Shown: positions 14,364 through 23,767, numbered from the stretch's first letter. The stretch: DNA of 64,000 bases from Candidatus Micrarchaeota archaeon (GCA_021797745.1 JAJZZD010000001.1:128468-192467); one strand, 5' to 3'. The notes: a model not told the origin generated them from the letters alone. A program made the numbers and translations.

Positions 14364-15341
14364 TTATTGTGCTGTCGTATTTCCTGCGTCTTTTGTGATC
14401 AGCAGCGACAATTCTCTGAAATCACTCAGCATAAGTTTCAAAATGGATTTGAATCTTAGCGCGGCTGCGGGATGAAACGTCAGGAAATATTTCGTGCCGT
14501 TTTTCTCCACTGTTTTTCCGTGCATTTTCGTGATATTTCCTATTCCCAGCACCTCTGTGCTGGCTACATTTCCTAGCAGAACCACATACTTAGGCTTAAT
14601 CAGCTCCATCTGCATTTTCAGGAAGGGCGCGCATAGGTTTATTTCATCCCGTGTCGGCATTCTGTTCTTTGGCGGGAAGAACTGTACGACACTGGTTATG
14701 TACGCTTCATTTCTCTTTATCCTCGAGGCCTTCAGTATCCTATCTAGAAGCTGGCCGCTTCTGCCTACAAACGGCCTTCTCTGCATGTCTTCGTTTGCCC
14801 CAGGAGCCTGACCGAGCAGCATTATCTCGGCGCTCAGTGAGCCTTCTCCAGGAACGAATGTCCTGCTTAAATTCCACCATTTTTCCTTTTTCGGCAACCC
14901 TGCGTATTCCTTGTTTATCTCCTTGATTTTTTCATACCTGTGTATGTAATCAAAAACCTCAGGCAGCACGTCCTTGATGTTCTTGTACTTTATTTTCTCC
15001 ATCGCCTGGTCCATGCTGAGCCATTCATAGCCGGTGTGCTCATGAGATATCTTTATGCGCTTCTCATCTGTTTCGGCGAGGAAAAACTTCACAGTTTTCA
15101 TTATCTTTTCCTTATTTCTGTAGAAAAACATTTTTACAGTTTTTAGGAATCCTGGCACGAAAGAAACAGAAAGTCCGGTTTCTTCTCTTACTTCCCTTCT
15201 GGCAGTTTCCTCGGCGCGCTCGCCTTTTTCAAAATGTCCTTTAGGAGTGTCATAATCATTTCCACGTTTCAGAAACAAAAGCAGCGCGTGACCGTTTTCT
15301 ATCCTGTAAACGAAAGCCCCGGCGGAAAATTCGAATTTCAT
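14364..15341 (-). CDS. Fusion protein: N-terminal Nudix hydrolase plus C-terminal family 4-like uracil-DNA glycosylase
   Basis: Nudix box GHFEKGERAEETARREVREETGL. UDG motifs VPGEGSLSAEIMLLGQAPGANED..PFVGRSGQLLD and FHPAAALR. Confidence 0.85.
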   Translation of the reverse strand: MKFEFSAGAFVYRIENGHALLLFLKRGNDYDTPKGHFEKGERAEETARREVREETGLSVSFVPGFLKTVKMFFYRNKEKIMKTVKFFLAETDEKRIKISHEHTGYEWLSMDQAMEKIKYKNIKDVLPEVFDYIHRYEKIKEINKEYAGLPKKEKWWNLSRTFVPGEGSLSAEIMLLGQAPGANEDMQRRPFVGRSGQLLDRILKASRIKRNEAYITSVVQFFPPKNRMPTRDEINLCAPFLKMQMELIKPKYVVLLGNVASTEVLGIGNITKMHGKTVEKNGTKYFLTFHPAAALRFKSILKLMLSDFRELSLLITKDAGNTTAQ

Positions 15342-16876
15342 ACATTTACCAGTTTTTCAGCAATGCAGTATCCTGCAATTATTTTTCGGTTCTCGGTTGA
15401 GTTGTAATTGGAAGGATTGAATATGTTGGAAATTGAAGTATAAAATCCGTCATAGCTGCCGCATTGACCGTTTCCTACGTAAGCATCAGGGATCAATACA
15501 GTAATGCCTACTACCGAGTATGTCGTGTTTTGCAAAAGCACAGGCGCACCTATGCTATACACAATGAATTCCGTGCCATTTGAATAAATGTCCATCACCT
15601 GCGATGCGAATCCTTTGCTGTCGAAGAATGACAGCGTGCCTTTTACCTCATCGCTCCCGTTAAGAACCTTCGATAAAATGTTTCCTTTGCTTGACATTAA
15701 AACCTCTATCGGCTCTGACGAATTGACGCTTGCGTTCGCGAGGAACAGCACGGCAGACGCGCCGTTATTCGCTATTGCTGCCGTAGAATTGAATCCCGAG
15801 GTATTGACAAGGCCGAAGGCAGAATTTTGCTGGCTGAATTTGCTGAAATTCAGCTGTGCATAATTATACAGATATATCGGGGATATGTTGTCGGCGCTGG
15901 AGTAAGAAAGCGTAAGCAGGAAATAAACTATGCTGAAAGCAAATGCCGCGGAAACTAATGCATACATAGACTTCGTGAAGTTGATGCCACTTGCTGCTTT
16001 TTTCCTGTTCTTGGTTTTTAATTTTTCTATTTCCAAGCCGTATTTGCCTGCGACAATAATCATGATTGCAATCGCTAGGTAGAAAAGTATCTGGCCGATG
16101 AAAAGGTGTATCACAATCAGGGTGCTGTTGGGACCGTTTGCTAGCCAGTAATATGCAATGAACAGCATGCGGAGAATGTTGAAAAGCAGAAGCAAAAGCA
16201 CGCCGCTCACTATCCAAAGCAACTTGCGCTTCAGCGTTCCCCTGAAGAGATACGCCATTGGAATCAGGAACGCTGCAATGGCAAGGAATGCGCCTATGCT
16301 AACGCACGTTTCGCCTATGCCTATTGCATATGCAGGAGTGCTGAGAGTTATCGGTGGTGCATAAGATACTGTGCTAACGAACGGCTTTATCAAGCCGTAT
16401 ACTATTTCGGTATTCACCGCAGAAAAGCCGTTGTATGCGTTTATTATGGGAGCAAACAGGAGCGGAGAGGCTAGCACTGGGTAAATTATCAACACCGCGA
16501 ACCTGCGCAGATTCACGATGCCGAACAGCATCATGGCCAATGACGCTATTGCAATCGGGAACAAAAGCATGTCTATCCTGTAGCTTATGAACCAGAACGA
16601 TAGCGACAGTCGGAGGTAAAGAAATAGAAGAATGAACAGGGCGAAGAGCGCAATACCTATTTTTAGCGATTTTCTGTCAGGTGAAGGCGTGAGCTTTTCC
16701 TTGACCATGAACAGGCACAGAAGCGGAAGCATCAAAATGGGCACTATGACATAGGTCGACGGGTCAGTGTCGAGTATCTGCAATTGCGTTATAAAGAAAG
16801 AGCTTGCGAGCATTATTGTTATGCATAGCGCGAGCACCAGTATCGCAACATTGCCTGTGTACTTCATATATTTCAC
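15338..16876 (-). CDS. Exosortase/archaeosortase family membrane protein with a ~190 aa C-terminal extracytoplasmic extension
   Basis: Polytopic N-terminal 300 aa carrying candidate Cys-Arg-His triad contexts GETCVSIG, FNILRMLF and VIHLFIGQILF. The stop codon overlaps the start of the downstream Nudix-UDG gene (ATGA). Confidence 0.55.
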   Translation of the reverse strand: MKYMKYTGNVAILVLALCITIMLASSFFITQLQILDTDPSTYVIVPILMLPLLCLFMVKEKLTPSPDRKSLKIGIALFALFILLFLYLRLSLSFWFISYRIDMLLFPIAIASLAMMLFGIVNLRRFAVLIIYPVLASPLLFAPIINAYNGFSAVNTEIVYGLIKPFVSTVSYAPPITLSTPAYAIGIGETCVSIGAFLAIAAFLIPMAYLFRGTLKRKLLWIVSGVLLLLLFNILRMLFIAYYWLANGPNSTLIVIHLFIGQILFYLAIAIMIIVAGKYGLEIEKLKTKNRKKAASGINFTKSMYALVSAAFAFSIVYFLLTLSYSSADNISPIYLYNYAQLNFSKFSQQNSAFGLVNTSGFNSTAAIANNGASAVLFLANASVNSSEPIEVLMSSKGNILSKVLNGSDEVKGTLSFFDSKGFASQVMDIYSNGTEFIVYSIGAPVLLQNTTYSVVGITVLIPDAYVGNGQCGSYDGFYTSISNIFNPSNYNSTENRKIIAGYCIAEKLVNV

Positions 16877-16996: not shown

Positions 16997-17437
16997 ATGC
17001 TAAAGAAACCCTTCAGGTATCTGCCGCATACCGCCGACGCTAAATTCGTAGCATACGGCAGCAGCTTCAAGATTGCTTTGGAAAACGCAGCGCTCGCCAT
17101 GCTCGGCATAATGTTTGAAACTGATAAAATCAAAAACAGCAAACTTTCCTCAAAAAGCGTTGCATTAAAAGAAGCCGCGCATTCGAAAGAAGACCTAGTG
17201 TGGTACACTTTGCAGGGCATTCTGTCTAAAGCCGACGAACTGTCACTGCATGCATATGCTTTCCGTGTCGCAAAACTCGAAGAAAGAAAGGACACGCTGC
17301 GGCTTTCTGGTTTTCTTTTGTACAAAAATGTCGGTGACAAGTTTTCGCTGATGGACATAAAAGCGATAACGCCGCACGAGCTTTCAGTGATAAATAAAAA
17401 TGGGCGTTTCGAGATTACAGTGGTGGCGGATGTTTAG
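16997..17437 (+). CDS. Archease (RtcB tRNA ligase activator family)
   Basis: N-terminal YLPHTADAKFVAYG motif and ~146 aa length typical of archease. Confidence 0.85.
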   Translation: MLKKPFRYLPHTADAKFVAYGSSFKIALENAALAMLGIMFETDKIKNSKLSSKSVALKEAAHSKEDLVWYTLQGILSKADELSLHAYAFRVAKLEERKDTLRLSGFLLYKNVGDKFSLMDIKAITPHELSVINKNGRFEITVVADV

Positions 17438-17458: not shown

Positions 17459-17989
17459 ATGAAATTCGGCAATTTTGATATCGAAATAAGGCTTGCACGC
17501 AGTAAAGATGCTGCGGGGATAGTGACCCACTGGAACGAGAACTTCAAAAGAGGTTTCAGCAAATATGCGGGGACTAACAGGCCCAGAAACAAAATAGATG
17601 CCAGACAATTAAGCAAATCCTTGGCGCTGAAAAAGAAAAACGATTTCGTATTTATTGCGATTGACAGGAAGGCTAAGAAAGTGATTGGCACATCCAATTT
17701 TTCAGCCAGAGATAAAGGCAGGACCAGGCATCGCGGCGGAATGAGCTGGGAAATAAACTACAGATACGCAAGGTTAGGCATAGGCACAGCTTTGGTCAAG
17801 GCGATTCTTGAAGAAGCAAAGAGACGTGGCTTCAAAAAGGCGCAAGCAGAAGTCGCAGTCGAAAATACGGCAAGTTTAAAGCTAGCAAAAAACTGCGGCT
17901 TCATGATAGAAGGCAGGAGGAAAATAGGCATGCTTCTCGACGACGGTAGATATGTAGATACGTATACTTTCGGTAAGGTGCTGAAATAG
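17459..17989 (+). CDS. GNAT family N-acetyltransferase
   Basis: Acetyl-CoA binding region RLGIGTALVKAILEEAKRRGF and downstream ENTASLKLAKNCGF. Confidence 0.8.
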   Translation: MKFGNFDIEIRLARSKDAAGIVTHWNENFKRGFSKYAGTNRPRNKIDARQLSKSLALKKKNDFVFIAIDRKAKKVIGTSNFSARDKGRTRHRGGMSWEINYRYARLGIGTALVKAILEEAKRRGFKKAQAEVAVENTASLKLAKNCGFMIEGRRKIGMLLDDGRYVDTYTFGKVLK

Positions 17990-18425
17990 CACATTCTGCC
18001 CGTGTTGCAAATTAACTAAACTAGTTGCGAAAATTGTAAAAATATGGAAGATATTTAAATCTTAAAGTCCATAATAATAATTGGTGTTAAGGAAAATATA
18101 CTCGTTATATTCCCACCACCTTAACACCACCCACTCTCACCAAATTACTGCCTTGGCCATTTGCCGGTTTTATTCCTATTTTACTACTGAGAACTTAGTC
18201 TAAGACTATTCCTGAAAATAAAAATTCCCTTTGCCGCTATTATTATCTGCGCCCTTTTTTATTTCAGGAAATTTAATTTGTACGCTGCCTTGTGCCTTCT
18301 TTATCATTTTTTTTCATAGCTTCCCGTTTGTCTCCGAATGCAACTTCCGCGGAAAACTCCAGTGACGCAATCTTGCCTGATTTTGTGCAAATTAATTTTC
18401 ATTCCTGCTGAACAAACCATCAGTG

Positions 18426-18496
18426 AGCCAGGAAGGGGAGTCGAACCCCTCTATGCCGCTCTGCAGGCGGCCACATAGCCGATCTGTCATCCTGGC
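18426..18496 (-). tRNA. tRNA-Cys(GCA): tRNA-Cys (anticodon GCA)
   Basis: Hand fold: acceptor GCCAGGA/UCCUGGC, anticodon stem GCCGC/GCGGC with loop CU-GCA-GA, T arm AGGGG-UUCGACU-CCCCU, discriminator U as expected for Cys. Confidence 0.85.
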
Positions 18497-18565
18497 AGCA
18501 ATGCGTGCTGTTTTTGCGTTTCAGTGGTTATCGCCGCGGTTCAGCTATCTTATTAATTATTAACT

Positions 18566-18575
18566 TTTTATATTA
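18566..18575 (+). promoter_or_regulatory. TATA box candidate for the CBS/HPF-like gene
   Basis: ttttatatta centred about 27 nt upstream of ATG 18597. Confidence 0.45.
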
Positions 18576-18596
18576 ATCTGTCTTTTCGGTGACTCT

Positions 18597-19730
18597 ATGA
18601 ATTTGGACATTAAACTACCTGCGGAGTTCGTTTCAAAAGCGGAGGTTTGCGATTATAAAACGCCCATAACTGAGATTATAGGAAAAATAAGGTCGCGGGG
18701 CTCAGTAGTGGTGATGAAGGACGGGGAATATTTCGGGGTGGTGAACGGAAAGACAATAGCCGAAGGCGGCTTCGCTAAGCTTGCAAAGGACTCTGTCGGA
18801 AAATTTGCCGACAGGGTCGCAGCTGCGGGAACAGATATCACCATCGAAAACGCAATAAGCAGCCTCTACAATTCCGAGATTGACGCGCTCCCGATCAGGG
18901 ACGGCAAGAAGATAATCGGGATAGTGAGAAGGGAAAAGATACTCGAATCGATTCTTTCGCTCCATGCCCTTTCGAAGGTAAGTGTTGAGGACATAATGGT
19001 TTCCCCAATAATAGACATAGACTCTAATGCCAATGTAGCTGCTGCAATCGCACTCATGCAGCAGAAGAAGATAAAGCGGCTCGTGGTAAACGACAGGGGA
19101 AAGCCTGCAGGCATAATAACGCAGAACGACATACTTTTCTCTCTCTCAAGGCCAGAGGAGAGGCTACCTGAGCTTAAGGTTGACGCGCATTCGCTGGAAA
19201 ATATTAGCGTCGGCAGCGTTGCTAACATGTACCTCAACACCGTATCTTATGACGAAAAAATAGATGCGGCGATAAAAATCTTCATAGAAAAAAAGGTAAG
19301 TTCAGTAGTTGCGATGAGAGGCGGCAGTGCAGTAGGGCTCATTACCGTTAGGGACGTACTCAAAGCAGCGATGCCAAAACCAGCAACAATTGATTCGCAA
19401 ATCATAATATCAGGATTGGACGACCGCACCAAGGAATTCGAAAATGAAATGAGGTCGCAAATAGGCAACTTCATAAGCAAGGCCGACAAGTTTTCGAGCC
19501 CAAGGCTAAAAATAGTAGAGATAAATGTTAAAAGAAAAGCCAGGGTGTATGAAGCTGCAGGCACTATGGAATTCGAAAGGGGCAACGACATACACGCGAA
19601 GGTTACGGCTTATAACACAGAGCAACTGGTGAGCGAGCTCATGGAAAAGCTTTACAAAATCGCTAAGGAAGAGAAGGAGGAAAAGATACACGACAAAAAA
19701 GAGGGCGGGAATGAGTATGAGGAAGAATAG
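18597..19730 (+). CDS. Four CBS motifs (two Bateman modules) fused to a C-terminal HPF/RaiA (ribosome hibernation factor)-like domain
   Basis: CBS-like segments such as IMVSPIIDIDSNANVAAAIALMQQKKIKRLVVNDRGKPAGIITQNDIL. The C-terminal ~100 aa (IIISGLDDRTKEFENEMRSQIGNFISKADKF...IVEINVKRK...GNDIHAKVTAYNTEQLVSELMEKLYKIAKEEKE) aligns by eye with the HPF/YfiA pattern. Confidence 0.7.
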   Translation: MNLDIKLPAEFVSKAEVCDYKTPITEIIGKIRSRGSVVVMKDGEYFGVVNGKTIAEGGFAKLAKDSVGKFADRVAAAGTDITIENAISSLYNSEIDALPIRDGKKIIGIVRREKILESILSLHALSKVSVEDIMVSPIIDIDSNANVAAAIALMQQKKIKRLVVNDRGKPAGIITQNDILFSLSRPEERLPELKVDAHSLENISVGSVANMYLNTVSYDEKIDAAIKIFIEKKVSSVVAMRGGSAVGLITVRDVLKAAMPKPATIDSQIIISGLDDRTKEFENEMRSQIGNFISKADKFSSPRLKIVEINVKRKARVYEAAGTMEFERGNDIHAKVTAYNTEQLVSELMEKLYKIAKEEKEEKIHDKKEGGNEYEEE

Positions 19731-20184
19731 GCTGTTGCAGTCCAGCTTCGAGCTGCTCATAACATTATCTTTCGGTCTGGCGCTCCTGCTTCCTTTAGTC
19801 ATAGTCGCGTTTCTTCAGCTGGCAGGCGCCAACGTGTCGCTTTCTTCTGTCGAGGCGCAGCAGGCAGCGAGCAAGCTTGCAAGCACGGCGACGCTGGTGG
19901 GAAGTGAAGGCGTGCCGGCAAAGCAGCTTGTGCAGATACAGGTTCCCTCGAGCGTGACTTCAATTTATGTCGGAAACGTGAACAACACAACAGGACACGA
20001 GGTTATTTTTGTCGTGAGCTCGCCTTCAGGTTCTAGTTACATAACCGCATACTCTCCGGTAAACATAAGTGGTTCGTTGCAGAGCATAGAGAATGCCGGC
20101 ACGTATCTGGTTAATGTCAGTGCAGTGTCAAGTTGTCCGAGCAATACGCTTATGCCGTGCGTTTACATGTCAGAACGCACATGA
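19711..20184 (+). CDS. Small pilin-like protein with a class III (type IV pilin-type) signal peptide
   Basis: N-terminus MSMRKNRLL-QSSFELLITLSFGLALLLPLVIVAF: charged leader, Q at +1, E at +5, hydrophobic helix. Remainder is Ser/Thr/Val-rich with N-x-S/T sequons. Overlaps the end of the upstream gene by 20 nt. Confidence 0.7.
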   Translation: MSMRKNRLLQSSFELLITLSFGLALLLPLVIVAFLQLAGANVSLSSVEAQQAASKLASTATLVGSEGVPAKQLVQIQVPSSVTSIYVGNVNNTTGHEVIFVVSSPSGSSYITAYSPVNISGSLQSIENAGTYLVNVSAVSSCPSNTLMPCVYMSERT

Positions 20185-20293: not shown

Positions 20294-23200
20294 ATGAATA
20301 ACTTCGCTGAGAAACATGGATGCGTGAAGCAGCAGAAACGGCAGAAGCAGCAAATTGCCCTCGAATTTCTGATAGTGTTCGCTTTCGTGATGCTGATATT
20401 CACAATACTTTTCGTGCTGATAGCCAACCAAAGGAGCCTTGTCATAAACCAGCAGACTTTCACTGAGGCGCAGCTTATCGCACAGCAGGTATCTGCTGTG
20501 ATAAACACTGCCATACAATCAGGGAGCGGCTATGCCAGCTCCACAATACTCACCGGCTTTATAAACAGCATACCCTACTCGCTTTACGTTTCTAAAAGCG
20601 GTCTTGTGCTTGTCAATTTGACACTCGGCCACCAGGTAATAGAGGCAGTAGCCTATGTGCCTGCACACAGTATCGTAGCGAGCAACTCTATGCTAGTAAC
20701 AGGGTCAAACGTGCTGTATTCGATACCTACTTATAACAGCATAATGACTGTGCAGAACTACCTTGGGCATGTGTGCATAGATTACAACTGCGGCACATCG
20801 AATAATTTTGCGAGCAACATAACGCTCACTGAGCAGGCAGTACACGCTGCTGCTTTCAGCAACGTGAGCAGTTTCATAAGCACCCCTGGCTACAACGCAC
20901 TGCCCACTGGCTCGTCAGCAAGGTCGGTTTTCGCGTGGGTCTATTTCACAGGTGGAATTTCTAACTACACAGTGTTCAGCTACGGAACTGCGGCAACAGG
21001 CGAGATGCTGGATTTGCGCATCCACCACAGGACTCTCCAGGTCGGCACAGGCGCATCGTATTACTCAAGCCCTCTTAACATTTCCAACAATACCTGGACT
21101 TTTGTAGGGCTTACATACGCCGCTGGCTCCTCCAATGTGATAGTTTATGCCAATAGCAGCAGTTCCCAATTTTCGGTTTCAGGTCCGCTGAACACATTTG
21201 GCACAACTGCAGATATAGGCGCACAGGCAGGCTGCAAATGCCAAAACATGAAAGGCTACATAACCAACTTGCAGGTTTACGCTTACAACCTGTCCAAAAG
21301 CCAGGTGCAGAATCAGTACTCGGAAGGAATAGGCGCTTCGCCGCTTACTGGAAATCTTGTGGCATGGTATCCTCTGCAGGGCAACGCCAACGACTACAGC
21401 GGCTACGGAAACAACGGAACTGCACATGGTCCTGTGTTCTATCCTTCTGCAGTAGAATTTTTCGCAAAAGCAGCAAGCTTTTCAATGACTCCAGTGGAAA
21501 ATATCCCAATAGGCTTCGTTGCTTCCTCTGGCTCTTTCACAGATTCCAACACTGCAAACGCACGTGTGTATGTTAACTACACAAATTCAAACGGCGTAGC
21601 CACGGCATTTCTAACGCAAACAGGAAACAATGGACAGGCTTTAGTCACTGCAACCGCTTTCAACGGCAATTCGTCATTGACAGGCAACATCGCCGCGTTC
21701 TGGCCGCTCAACGCGCAGCAGGGCAACAGGCTTTACGATATATCCGGCAATAATGCCAACGGCGCCATAACCTATTCCTCATGGTCCTTGCCTGACTATG
21801 CTAGCTTTTTCGATGGCAGCTCAGCGTATGTGGAAATACCTACCACTTCGCAGCTCAACAGCACAACGTTTACAGTCAGCTTTTGGATGAATCCAAGACT
21901 GTATGGCAATGCGCAGGACAATCTAACGCTGCCAGCAGCAAGTTCTAGCTCAAGCGCAAGCGTTCTTGTGAGCCATACGTACAACAGCATGTGGTGGATG
22001 ACCTTCGGTGATAATAACGAGGTGTCAATGTATGTTGAAAATTCAATCACGCCTTCGCAGTGCTGCCAGTCGGTAATTGCTTACAACGCAGTGCCGCAGC
22101 TAAACAAGTGGTATATGGTAACCGGCATCGCTAATTCCACGTACATTAAAATATACATAAACGGAATGCTCGTGCAGGAGCAGCCGATAATCGGAAGCAT
22201 CCAGGAGGCTGGCAATAGCATTGTGGTAGGAACCGGTTTCGGGGCTCAGGCCACTTCATATGGATATTTCTCCGGCCAGATTTCAAATCTCCAAATTTAC
22301 GACACTGCGCTTACTTCCGCACAGGTTCAGGAGCTTTACAATTCCGGCATCGCCGGGTCTCCGGTTTCCGCCAGTTCCCTTTCAGGATGGTGGCCGCTCG
22401 ATGGCGACGCAAAGGACTACAGCGCGTATCTTAACAACGGCACAGTATTCGGAAACTTGACCAACCTGAATCTTGGCAATCTGCAGAGCACAAACGCAAA
22501 TTATACGTCTCTTCTCTCTGCCAGCTTCAACGGCGTTTCTGACTATAGCTACATATCCACTAATATTTCGCAGGTTAGCAACGCGTTGAGCGTAGCATTG
22601 TGGGTAAACGCAAGCAGCCTTTCAAAGATGACAAGCTCTGACGGCTATTCAATTTTCAACTCTGTAAGCTCTGGCAGCGGCAATCCAGTTTCATTCCTAC
22701 TGAACAATGGCGGCGGGCTTGGGACAAGTGCAGGCTCAGGCGATGAGGAGCTGTGCATAAGCGCAACGTGCTACAACGGTTACGGAATAAGCAACTCATC
22801 CTGGTACTTCCTTGCATTCACGCTGAACCGTGGCAACGCGAGCCTTTACGCAAACGGCGCTCCCCCTTACAACATATCCGTTCTCACTGGACCTTACTCA
22901 ATCAATTCGCTTTCTCTGGCTAAATCTGCGCTAGGAATAAGTGGATTCACAGGCAACATGTCGAATGTACAGATATATAGCAAGGCTCTCAGCCCGCAGC
23001 AGATTTACCGGATATATTCGAGCGGCATTTCCGGCATTCCTGTGAATTACTCTTCACAAAACACTAACCTTGTGGCATGGTATCCTCTGCAGGGCAACGC
23101 CAACGACATGAGTGCAAACATGAACAGCGGCATTCCCAGCAACGTAGCATATGCAAATACGGGATTCGTGAATAGCCATCTTGTAAACACGCAGGGAGGC

Positions 23201-23767
23201 TATGGGATAAACCTGAATGGCAACAGCAGCTACGCGTTTACCTCGACAAACGTGGCACTGGGCACAAACACAATGACGGCAGTCGCGTGGGTGTATCCTG
23301 AACAGATACGCGGGACAAGCGGACCCATAAAGATAATACTGAGTTCAAAACAGGCGCAGAACGGTGGTTTTGTCCTTGCGATACAAAACGGCAGCAGCAA
23401 TAATTACTTCTCTGCGAATTTCTCAGTGTATGCTAACGCCAAATGGAACAAGGTCACAACGCCCACGGCCTTGAATCCGTATGACGATTGGTACCAGATA
23501 GCAGGCGTGTACAACAACTCATATATAGGAATCTACATCAACGGCGTTCTCATGAACAAAACGGCTCTGACTGGCGCGATAAACCAGCCTGCCGGTGTAA
23601 CAAGCATAGGCGGCAATAACGGTAACACCACAGACTACTTTGCCGGAGCAATCGCAGATGTGCAGGTATATTCTGTTGCTCTGACGCAGCAGCAGCTTCT
23701 TCAGCTTTATGCGTATGGAATGCCTCCGTATGCGCGCGCAATAGCACAGTTTTCGGTGATAAATTGA
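20294..23767 (+). CDS. Giant pilin-signal-bearing surface protein with four LamG (concanavalin A-like, Laminin_G_3 type) domains
   Basis: N-terminus KQ-QIALEFLIVFAFVMLIFTILFVLI (Q+1, E+5). Four domain-end signatures (G.I(T/S)N(L/V)Q(V/I)Y...LS..Q...(L)Y..G). Domain-start modules of the type WYPLQGNANDYSGYGNNGT. About 30 N-x-S/T sequons by hand count. Confidence 0.85.
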   Translation: MNNFAEKHGCVKQQKRQKQQIALEFLIVFAFVMLIFTILFVLIANQRSLVINQQTFTEAQLIAQQVSAVINTAIQSGSGYASSTILTGFINSIPYSLYVSKSGLVLVNLTLGHQVIEAVAYVPAHSIVASNSMLVTGSNVLYSIPTYNSIMTVQNYLGHVCIDYNCGTSNNFASNITLTEQAVHAAAFSNVSSFISTPGYNALPTGSSARSVFAWVYFTGGISNYTVFSYGTAATGEMLDLRIHHRTLQVGTGASYYSSPLNISNNTWTFVGLTYAAGSSNVIVYANSSSSQFSVSGPLNTFGTTADIGAQAGCKCQNMKGYITNLQVYAYNLSKSQVQNQYSEGIGASPLTGNLVAWYPLQGNANDYSGYGNNGTAHGPVFYPSAVEFFAKAASFSMTPVENIPIGFVASSGSFTDSNTANARVYVNYTNSNGVATAFLTQTGNNGQALVTATAFNGNSSLTGNIAAFWPLNAQQGNRLYDISGNNANGAITYSSWSLPDYASFFDGSSAYVEIPTTSQLNSTTFTVSFWMNPRLYGNAQDNLTLPAASSSSSASVLVSHTYNSMWWMTFGDNNEVSMYVENSITPSQCCQSVIAYNAVPQLNKWYMVTGIANSTYIKIYINGMLVQEQPIIGSIQEAGNSIVVGTGFGAQATSYGYFSGQISNLQIYDTALTSAQVQELYNSGIAGSPVSASSLSGWWPLDGDAKDYSAYLNNGTVFGNLTNLNLGNLQSTNANYTSLLSASFNGVSDYSYISTNISQVSNALSVALWVNASSLSKMTSSDGYSIFNSVSSGSGNPVSFLLNNGGGLGTSAGSGDEELCISATCYNGYGISNSSWYFLAFTLNRGNASLYANGAPPYNISVLTGPYSINSLSLAKSALGISGFTGNMSNVQIYSKALSPQQIYRIYSSGISGIPVNYSSQNTNLVAWYPLQGNANDMSANMNSGIPSNVAYANTGFVNSHLVNTQGGYGINLNGNSSYAFTSTNVALGTNTMTAVAWVYPEQIRGTSGPIKIILSSKQAQNGGFVLAIQNGSSNNYFSANFSVYANAKWNKVTTPTALNPYDDWYQIAGVYNNSYIGIYINGVLMNKTALTGAINQPAGVTSIGGNNGNTTDYFAGAIADVQVYSVALTQQQLLQLYAYGMPPYARAIAQFSVIN
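21361..21424 (+). repeat. 64 bp segment identical to 29020..29083 (encodes WYPLQGNANDYSGYGNNGTA)
   Basis: Base-by-base comparison: ggcatggtatcctctgcagggcaacgccaacgactacagcggctacggaaacaacggaactgca occurs at both sites. Flanking sequence diverges immediately. Confidence 0.9.
23069..23107 (+). repeat. 39 bp segment identical to 21356..21394 (third copy of the WYPLQGNAND module)
   Basis: cttgtggcatggtatcctctgcagggcaacgccaacgac is present at both positions. Confidence 0.9.

Follow-up and report, generated by a model that had tools for sequence, protein, structure and literature searches.

Gene and protein architecture

The gene under study lies in a 64,000-nucleotide stretch of DNA (the window; JAJZZD010000001.1:128468-192467) from assembly GCA_021797745.1 of a Candidatus Micrarchaeota archaeon, which amounts to 806 kb in 9 contigs and is 90.6% complete. 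Currently annotated as 'CBS domain-containing protein' only, the gene encodes a product of 377 aa (P0001) in which four CBS motifs precede a domain resembling HPF/RaiA, and it is very probably a Micrarchaeota member of the archaeal ribosome hibernation factors known as HibA and AHA. The gene (hereafter hibA) and the parts of its product were located as follows (PTC, peptidyl-transferase centre; pLDDT, predicted local distance difference test).

18597..19730, plus strand: hibA/AHA-type gene, 377 aa (open reading frame, ORF, list and translation; stop codon included)
18597..19385, plus strand: N-terminal CBS tetrad, residues 1-263 (Pfam CBS, AlphaFold2 model, Foldseek)
19146..19208, plus strand: loop between CBS3 and CBS4, residues ~184-204, equivalent of the HibA PTC loop and of AHA loop 3 (alignment, model)
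19386..19706, plus strand: C-terminal HPF/RaiA-like domain, residues 264-370 (AlphaFold2, Foldseek, PF02482, PDB profile matches)
19707..19727, plus strand: acidic disordered C-terminal tail (pLDDT <50 for residues 370-377; charge count)

The reading frame is intact across the 377 aa. Four CBS stretches were recognised by Pfam (E=1.4e-28), with boundaries at residues ~10-57 (CBS1), ~66-121 (CBS2), ~129-183 (CBS3) and ~204-259 (CBS4). The full-length AlphaFold2 model, based on a 14-sequence alignment, reached a mean pLDDT of 80.7 and presented the tetrad as four beta-alpha-beta-beta-alpha units, with a pLDDT of mostly 85-95. Residues 361-377 carry a net charge of -5, and C-terminal tails differ from homolog to homolog.

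Homology to HibA and AHA

Two recent reports describe proteins of this architecture. HibA, known from Pyrococcus abyssi and Thermococcus barophilus (Madru et al., Nat Commun 2026; preprint October 2025), was found on the 70S ribosomes of P. abyssi under stress, and consists of a CBS module (residues 1-269) and an HPF/RaiA-like domain (residues 270-392); the latter occupies the mRNA/tRNA channel of the 30S subunit, while the CBS module was seen in three positions on the 50S subunit, in one of which loop 190-207 enters the PTC (PMC13324472). The affinity of the HibA CBS module decreases in the order AMP, ADP and ATP (dissociation constants of 12, 65 and 113 uM, respectively), and the family was reported in 47% of archaeal genomes (PMC13324472). 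AHA is the same protein in Haloferax volcanii (HVO_2384, PDB 12DM; Souza et al., EMBO J 2026), for which 3160 homologs were counted in 2723 species and 17 phyla (PMC13728122). The CBS-HPF family is backed by cryo-electron microscopy structures, knock-outs and AMP binding (PMC13324472, PMC13728122).

A collection of 5.8 billion proteins yielded 13 full-length homologs of P0001, of 371-382 aa and 27-39% identity, one of which is labelled Candidatus Micrarchaeia. They are conserved from end to end and share the C-terminal motifs ISGLD, Y-E/D and KR...YE. A full-length profile built from 14 homologs was aligned with P. abyssi HibA (9sr9_H) in one single stretch, from profile position 19 to 365 and chain position 17 to 378 (E=2.7e-29). 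A second CBS-HPF chain of known structure, 9l96_a, matched this profile in both modules, as two stretches (E=3.8e-27). The PDB group 9SR9-9SRF/9T7H corresponds to P. abyssi HibA; the reference structure of the paper is 9SRE, with the same length of 392 aa (PMC13324472).

Module order and size match between HibA (1-269 and 270-392) and P0001 (1-263 and 264-377), and the two proteins are collinear; P0001 also has its CBS3-CBS4 loop where HibA has the PTC loop, and keeps the nucleotide motif in CBS3 and CBS4. It differs from HibA by a low sequence identity, by being 15 aa shorter, by its acidic tail, and by its origin from a 0.8-Mb DPANN genome where it is linked to pilin-like genes. Likeness to AHA, judged from the published description, comprises the 4xCBS-HPF layout, the equivalent of loop 3 and predicted nucleotide sites in CBS3 and CBS4, where AHA binds two AMP.

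The C-terminal domain

In the AlphaFold2 model the C-terminal domain follows the order beta (268-272), alpha (279-296), beta (304-313), beta (318-326), beta (331-338) and alpha (341-370). The CBS tetrad dominates the full-length model, so that Foldseek returned CBS-tetrad proteins only, and the C-terminal 113 residues therefore had to be modelled on their own; this second model had a pLDDT of 78 and the same topology. Compared with the PDB by Foldseek, this model had as its first 27 matches, all with a probability of 1.00, HPF, RaiA/YfiA/protein Y, plastid pY or the N-domains of long HPF, with a maximum template modelling score of 0.82 for E. coli HPF (6h4n_x; root mean square deviation of 2.1 A). 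Past the 27th match, where E-values leap from ~3e-3 to 5e-2, only unrelated folds follow (e.g. LptE).

Primary sequence comparisons led to the same family. The C-terminal piece of P0001 matched PF02482 (Ribosomal_S30AE; Sigma-54 modulation/S30EA) over positions 12-85 of the 88 of this profile with 14.8 bits and E=0.047, and when 12 homologous C-terminal domains were scanned singly, 11 of them matched PF02482 (best E=2.2e-5), no other family being recurrent. A single-sequence PDB search (phmmer) had its best match in the HPF on the hibernating ribosome of Borrelia (8fmw_W, E=0.018). With the profile of the C-terminal family, the top four PDB matches were all HPF/YhbH, namely 8fmw_W (0.0022), 4hei_A (0.0074), 4v8h_AX and 2rql_A. 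PDB entry 9i5v_14 (401 aa, 'RaiA', matched over residues 317-399) was considered as an archaeal protein of the same layout and rejected, 9I5V being a ribosome of Porphyromonas gingivalis.

The sequence-only reading of this locus had claimed four CBS motifs in the N-terminal ~265 aa and, by eye, an HPF/RaiA-like domain with a pattern of beta strand, alpha helix, three beta strands and alpha helix in the remainder; both claims were borne out by Pfam, models, profiles and Foldseek, and the assignment to an unrelated fold that would have spoken against the second did not occur. The sequence of P0001 by itself gives no more than a lead toward HPF, and one may ask whether a common small alpha/beta fold resembles HPF by chance, in a generic CBS regulator of the kind of HhpR, a transcription factor with a CBS tetrad. 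The weak single-sequence scores from Pfam and phmmer agree with such a coincidence, as does the presence of HhpR among the NCBIfam matches of the CBS part (E=2.1e-6, far below its cut-off). However, profiles, per-member Pfam matches and structure comparison indicate HPF and nothing else, a clear gap separates the 27 HPF-family matches from the next folds, the full-length alignment with HibA continues through the C-terminal domain, and HhpR-type proteins are devoid of such a domain (PMC13324472). By the per-member PF02482, HibA profile and Foldseek results, chance resemblance was effectively refuted and retains a barely appreciable probability.

Within the HPF family, the domain of P0001 is of a compact type. 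Its hairpin between beta2 and beta3 has no insertion (0 residues, as in bacterial HPFs), whereas P. abyssi HibA and 9l96 carry 6 additional residues (FNEKFR and HDEKLR, respectively) and Aenigmatarchaeota proteins carry 5; the hairpin is mostly 7-8 residues long among 47 non-identical Micrarchaeota sequences, the set on which the motif and loop counts below are also based. The hairpin region of P0001 spans residues 308-322, and the loci compared include L050 and L054. The insertion (beta14-beta15) was described as archaeal-specific and contacts uS12, and a HibA mutant deprived of both its insertions still inhibits translation (PMC13324472). The G..IHA motif of beta4 is common to P0001 and bacterial HPFs. 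The C-terminal profile gave 15-21 bits with bacterial HPFs and 11-24 bits with domains from Aenigmatarchaeota and Thermoplasmata. Bacterial HPFs are scored on a par with these other archaeal domains, and far above the solved archaeal HibA domains (2-6 bits).

Equal hairpin length and the G..IHA motif are among the features that P0001 shares with bacterial HPF, RaiA (YfiA) and plastid pY (PF02482). In contrast to bacterial HPFs, which are either stand-alone proteins of ~95-110 aa or carry a C-terminal dimerisation domain, P0001 has a CBS tetrad of 263 aa, a longer terminal helix and an archaeal host. Judged from these sequence features, the Micrarchaeota HPF domain may represent a less derived form. 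It could then bear on a point of disagreement between the HibA and AHA papers, namely descent from LUCA (the last universal common ancestor) versus early transfer of HPF from bacteria (PMC13324472, PMC13728122).

The CBS tetrad, its nucleotide motif and the PTC-type loop

With the whole model, the best Foldseek matches, extending over 260-300 columns, were ribosome-bound factors, namely the Methanosarcina proteins SriA/B and SriD and the Pyrobaculum protein Dri, together with AMPK-gamma; P. abyssi HibA was absent from the top 50 matches (fold library ending on 2026-04-08). The same structural relatives, AMPK-gamma and the Sri/Dri factors, were named for the AHA tetrad (PMC13728122). Among SriA-D/ARC and Dri structures (9ZNF/9ZNG/9ZNI, 9E6Q/9E7F), which were the best matches of the CBS tetrad, 9znf_4 reached E=3e-17 by structure and 9zni_6 reached E=2.9e-32 by profile. 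In Dri, too, a loop enters the PTC (PMC13728122). These factors differ from P0001 in that they are made of CBS motifs only (one or two tetrads), without an HPF domain, and the likeness is limited to the tetrad.

The ribose-phosphate motif G-h-h-[T/S]-x-x-[D/N] was well conserved in CBS3 (G in 46/47 sequences, T/S in 45/47, D/N in 40/47) and in CBS4 (G and T/S in 47/47 each, D in 43/47), and degenerate in CBS1 and CBS2. At the level of this generic motif, the restriction to CBS3 and CBS4 fits the published AMP/ATP site at the interface of CBS3 and CBS4 (PMC13324472, PMC13728122). On this sequence evidence, the CBS3/CBS4 pair would most likely be a binding site for AMP or other adenine nucleotides. 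The CBS3-CBS4 loop aligned with residues ~186-210 of P. abyssi HibA, a segment spanning the published PTC loop (190-207). It has a low pLDDT in the model; in the 47 homologs it is 20-27 residues long, and 43 of them display R or K at position 189.

Distribution and retention

Of the 151 Micrarchaeota genomes sampled, which measure 0.6-1.6 Mb, 146 contain a homolog of P0001 at E<=1e-10, including 128 of 133 high-quality genomes; 81 of 85 genera are represented. Some 132-135 of these matches extend through the HPF domain (~88% of the sampled genomes), mostly as single copies. All named relatives are Candidatus Micrarchaeota metagenome-assembled genomes (MAGs), while more distant full-length matches were found in Aenigmatarchaeota and Thermoplasmata. 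Micrarchaeota genomes were included in the database of the HibA survey (PMC13324472), and the phylum is named in the main text of neither the HibA nor the AHA paper (PMC13324472, PMC13728122).

In its own genome, the P0001 gene is the only PF02482-like locus (14.7 bits in the genome scan) and encodes the only CBS tetrad, the other CBS matches being three short ORFs (127-205 aa), each with a CBS pair. Stand-alone CBS-module factors were reported to be mutually exclusive with HibA (PMC13324472), and the lone tetrad of this genome fits that observation.

DPANN genomes lose many genes, and P0001 does depart at a few conserved positions, such as N50 where 42 of 47 sequences have D; a decaying, non-functional remnant in a reduced symbiont genome might be expected to look this way. 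Such decay is nevertheless extremely improbable in view of the intact frame of 377 aa, the confident model (pLDDT 80.7) and the full-length, mostly single-copy orthologs kept across the phylum.

Downstream genes and linkage with pilin-type signals

Two genes with pilin-type N-termini follow hibA on the same strand.

19711..20184, plus strand: 157-aa gene with a class-III (pilin-type) Q-x-S-x-E signal, N-terminus LLQSSFELLITLSFGL, overlapping hibA by 20 nt
20294..23767, plus strand: 1157-aa protein with a pilin-type N-terminus (QIALEFLIVFAF), four Laminin_G_3/ConA-like lectin domains (E=2.4e-63) and a pentraxin-like stretch

The 20-nt overlap between hibA and a first pilin-like gene, already noticed in the sequence-only reading, was found again together with the signal itself. 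Ten orthologs of the 157-aa protein share Q10, S12 and E14 without exception, and three of the ten matched PF04021 (Class_IIIsignal; best E=1.2e-4); the window's own 157-aa ORF had no match in Pfam. A PDB profile search with the 157-aa family returned only a weak pilin match (6w8u_A, E=0.16). In close relatives, a pilin-signal gene of ~140-170 aa is likewise followed by one for a large protein that has LamG domains and a similar N-terminus, and the 1157-aa LamG protein is a candidate adhesin of the episymbiont.

Synteny was recorded with the pattern Q-x-[STA]-x-E plus a hydrophobic run in the window and in loci L002-L049. The pilin-signal gene directly follows hibA in 31 of the 47 Micrarchaeota loci, which belong to several families of the class, with stop-to-start spacings from -26 to +7 nt. 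These 31 are the window itself, 10 of 11 loci from relatives at family or order level (with one ambiguous case), 12 of 15 from further named MAGs and 8 of 20 class-level loci; two further class-level genomes have the pilin-signal gene one gene away from hibA. The pairing was found in none of four loci outside Micrarchaeota. Upstream protein-coding neighbours vary among the loci, which means that the hibA-pilin pair survived rearrangements. Neither the HibA nor the AHA paper mentions pilins or the gene neighbourhood (PMC13324472, PMC13728122).

Two class-level loci, L018 and L031, have a gene of ~445 aa, starting with GGSSTTGAAGVEADLKTF, between hibA and the pilin-signal gene, with a 12-nt overlap with hibA; by eye it resembles the phosphomethylpyrimidine kinase ThiD.

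A functional link between hibA and the pilin gene is unproven. Compact genomes often pack genes into operons without shared function. Micrarchaeota hibA could stand at the head of a transcription unit that is old, specific to this lineage and shared with genes for type IV pilin-like surface proteins, so that dormancy and host attachment are expressed, and perhaps regulated, together; this is a tentative proposal that we regard as rather unlikely. If it were true, a detached, starving episymbiont could park its ribosomes and show adhesive pili simultaneously.

The linkage can also be read in another way, in which the HibA architecture was re-purposed in Micrarchaeota and acts with, or regulates, the co-transcribed pilin-like proteins (e.g. 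as an RNA-binding or nucleotide-sensing regulator), hibernation not being its primary role. Besides the adjoining or overlapping genes in those 31 loci with varying upstream protein-coding neighbours, an HPF domain that is very divergent from that of P. abyssi HibA and has no uS12-contacting insertion would suit this view. However, the HPF fold, the equivalent of the PTC loop and the CBS3/4 nucleotide motif, all tied to ribosome binding, were retained; the protein is also kept without the linkage in half of the class-level relatives and in all four relatives outside the phylum, and inhibition by P. abyssi HibA is unaffected by the loss of both insertions (PMC13324472). A change of role is thus quite improbable.

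Upstream region and putative promoter

The following features precede hibA.

15338..16876, minus strand: archaeosortase/exosortase-family membrane protein (PF09721, E=3.9e-11)
16997..17437, plus strand: archease (PF01951)
17459..17989, plus strand: GNAT acetyltransferase
18425..18496, minus strand: tRNA-Cys(GCA), divergent, ~100 nt upstream of hibA (ARAGORN; Rfam RF00005, 49.2 bits)
18551..18592, plus strand: promoter-like AT-rich region and Shine-Dalgarno (SD)-like motif (sequence inspection; putative function)

Nine of 12 close relatives, as well as some class-level genomes, have the tRNA-Cys gene in the same place upstream of hibA. A TATA box at about -27 had been proposed for hibA, and a TATA-like TTTATATT is indeed present at 18567-18574, its centre being 27 nt before the ATG. 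An SD-like GGTGA is located at 18588-18592, and relatives show GGTG-like motifs 5-10 nt before their ATG. Since this motif suggests a short leader, the AT-rich TTATTAATTATTAA at 18551-18565 is at least an equally good TATA candidate. The position proposed earlier is correct, and a working role of TTTATATT uncertain. A scan for sigma-70 promoters and terminators was uninformative for an archaeon.

Between the GNAT gene and tRNA-Cys (17990-18424, ~435 nt), neither an ORF of >=50 aa on either strand nor an Rfam match was found. This segment is AT-rich, contains several T-runs and is long for a 0.8-Mb genome. An archaeosortase gene was also observed next to the hibA locus in several relatives (L005, L006, L009, L011 and L012); it is close to surface-protein genes and might process their products.

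A probable Micrarchaeota hibernation factor

Each core feature of HibA and AHA that is accessible in silico was found in P0001: a tetrad of CBS domains, an HPF-type fold, sequence homology collinear with HibA, and a CBS3-CBS4 loop aligned with the PTC loop. Architecture, fold, full-length homology, motif conservation and phyletic retention are matters of direct observation, and on their basis membership in the HibA/AHA family is held with high confidence.

Several points weigh against this assignment. The PF02482 score of P0001 is under the Pfam gathering threshold (14.8 versus 23.7 bits, and 10.5 bits for the full-length protein), and an NCBIfam search gave no match on the C-terminal domain. 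The C-terminal profile alone scored P. abyssi HibA at just 2.4 bits and 9l96 at 5.8 bits, and contacts with the 30S subunit may therefore differ in detail. P0001 is also without the 6-residue hairpin insertion by which P. abyssi HibA contacts uS12. Neither AMP nor ATP had a visible effect on ribosome binding of the characterised members (PMC13324472), and for the Micrarchaeota protein, ribosome binding, nucleotide binding and their coupling would follow by analogy with these members. The sub-threshold PF02482 match is nonetheless above chance, because 11 of 12 homologs match this family, the four best profile matches are HPF/YhbH and the fold search was unambiguous. Similarly, the missing insertion does not disqualify P0001, since HibA stayed active after the double deletion (PMC13324472).

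By homology with the solved complexes, the HPF/RaiA-like domain (~264-370) would bind at the A and P sites of the small subunit, within its mRNA/tRNA channel, and the CBS tetrad (1-263) would dock on the large subunit, with the CBS3-CBS4 loop (~184-204) extending toward the peptidyl-transferase centre. One single polypeptide might in this way clamp both subunits and keep out mRNA and tRNA, and idle 70S ribosomes would be preserved through starvation or stationary phase. Energy-state-controlled silencing had been suggested for this locus from the sequence. The underlying fusion of a sensor with a silencer was borne out in HibA and AHA, but control by nucleotides is still a hypothesis even for these members, whose reports caution against taking AMP or ATP binding as a proven modulator of ribosome binding (PMC13324472, PMC13728122). 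The accompanying statement that characterised HPF factors come chiefly from bacteria and plastids is outdated, archaeal CBS-HPF proteins having been published with structures and knock-outs. As the same architecture was published as HibA/AHA, the earlier hypothesis was right in kind and is no longer new.

What is new here consists of lineage-specific details, the bacterial-like compact HPF domain and the pilin linkage, both previously unreported. The record can be corrected as well, the 'CBS domain-containing protein' of current annotation being nameable as a HibA/AHA-type hibernation factor. The hairpin and pilin details could inform the question of how HPF entered the Archaea, and the triggers by which HibA is engaged and released. 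Host-dependent DPANN archaea are probably starved or detached for long periods. That a genome of ~0.8 Mb keeps this gene as its sole recognisable hibernation gene, and that the gene is near-universal in the phylum, suggests that the ability to park ribosomes is close to indispensable for such organisms.

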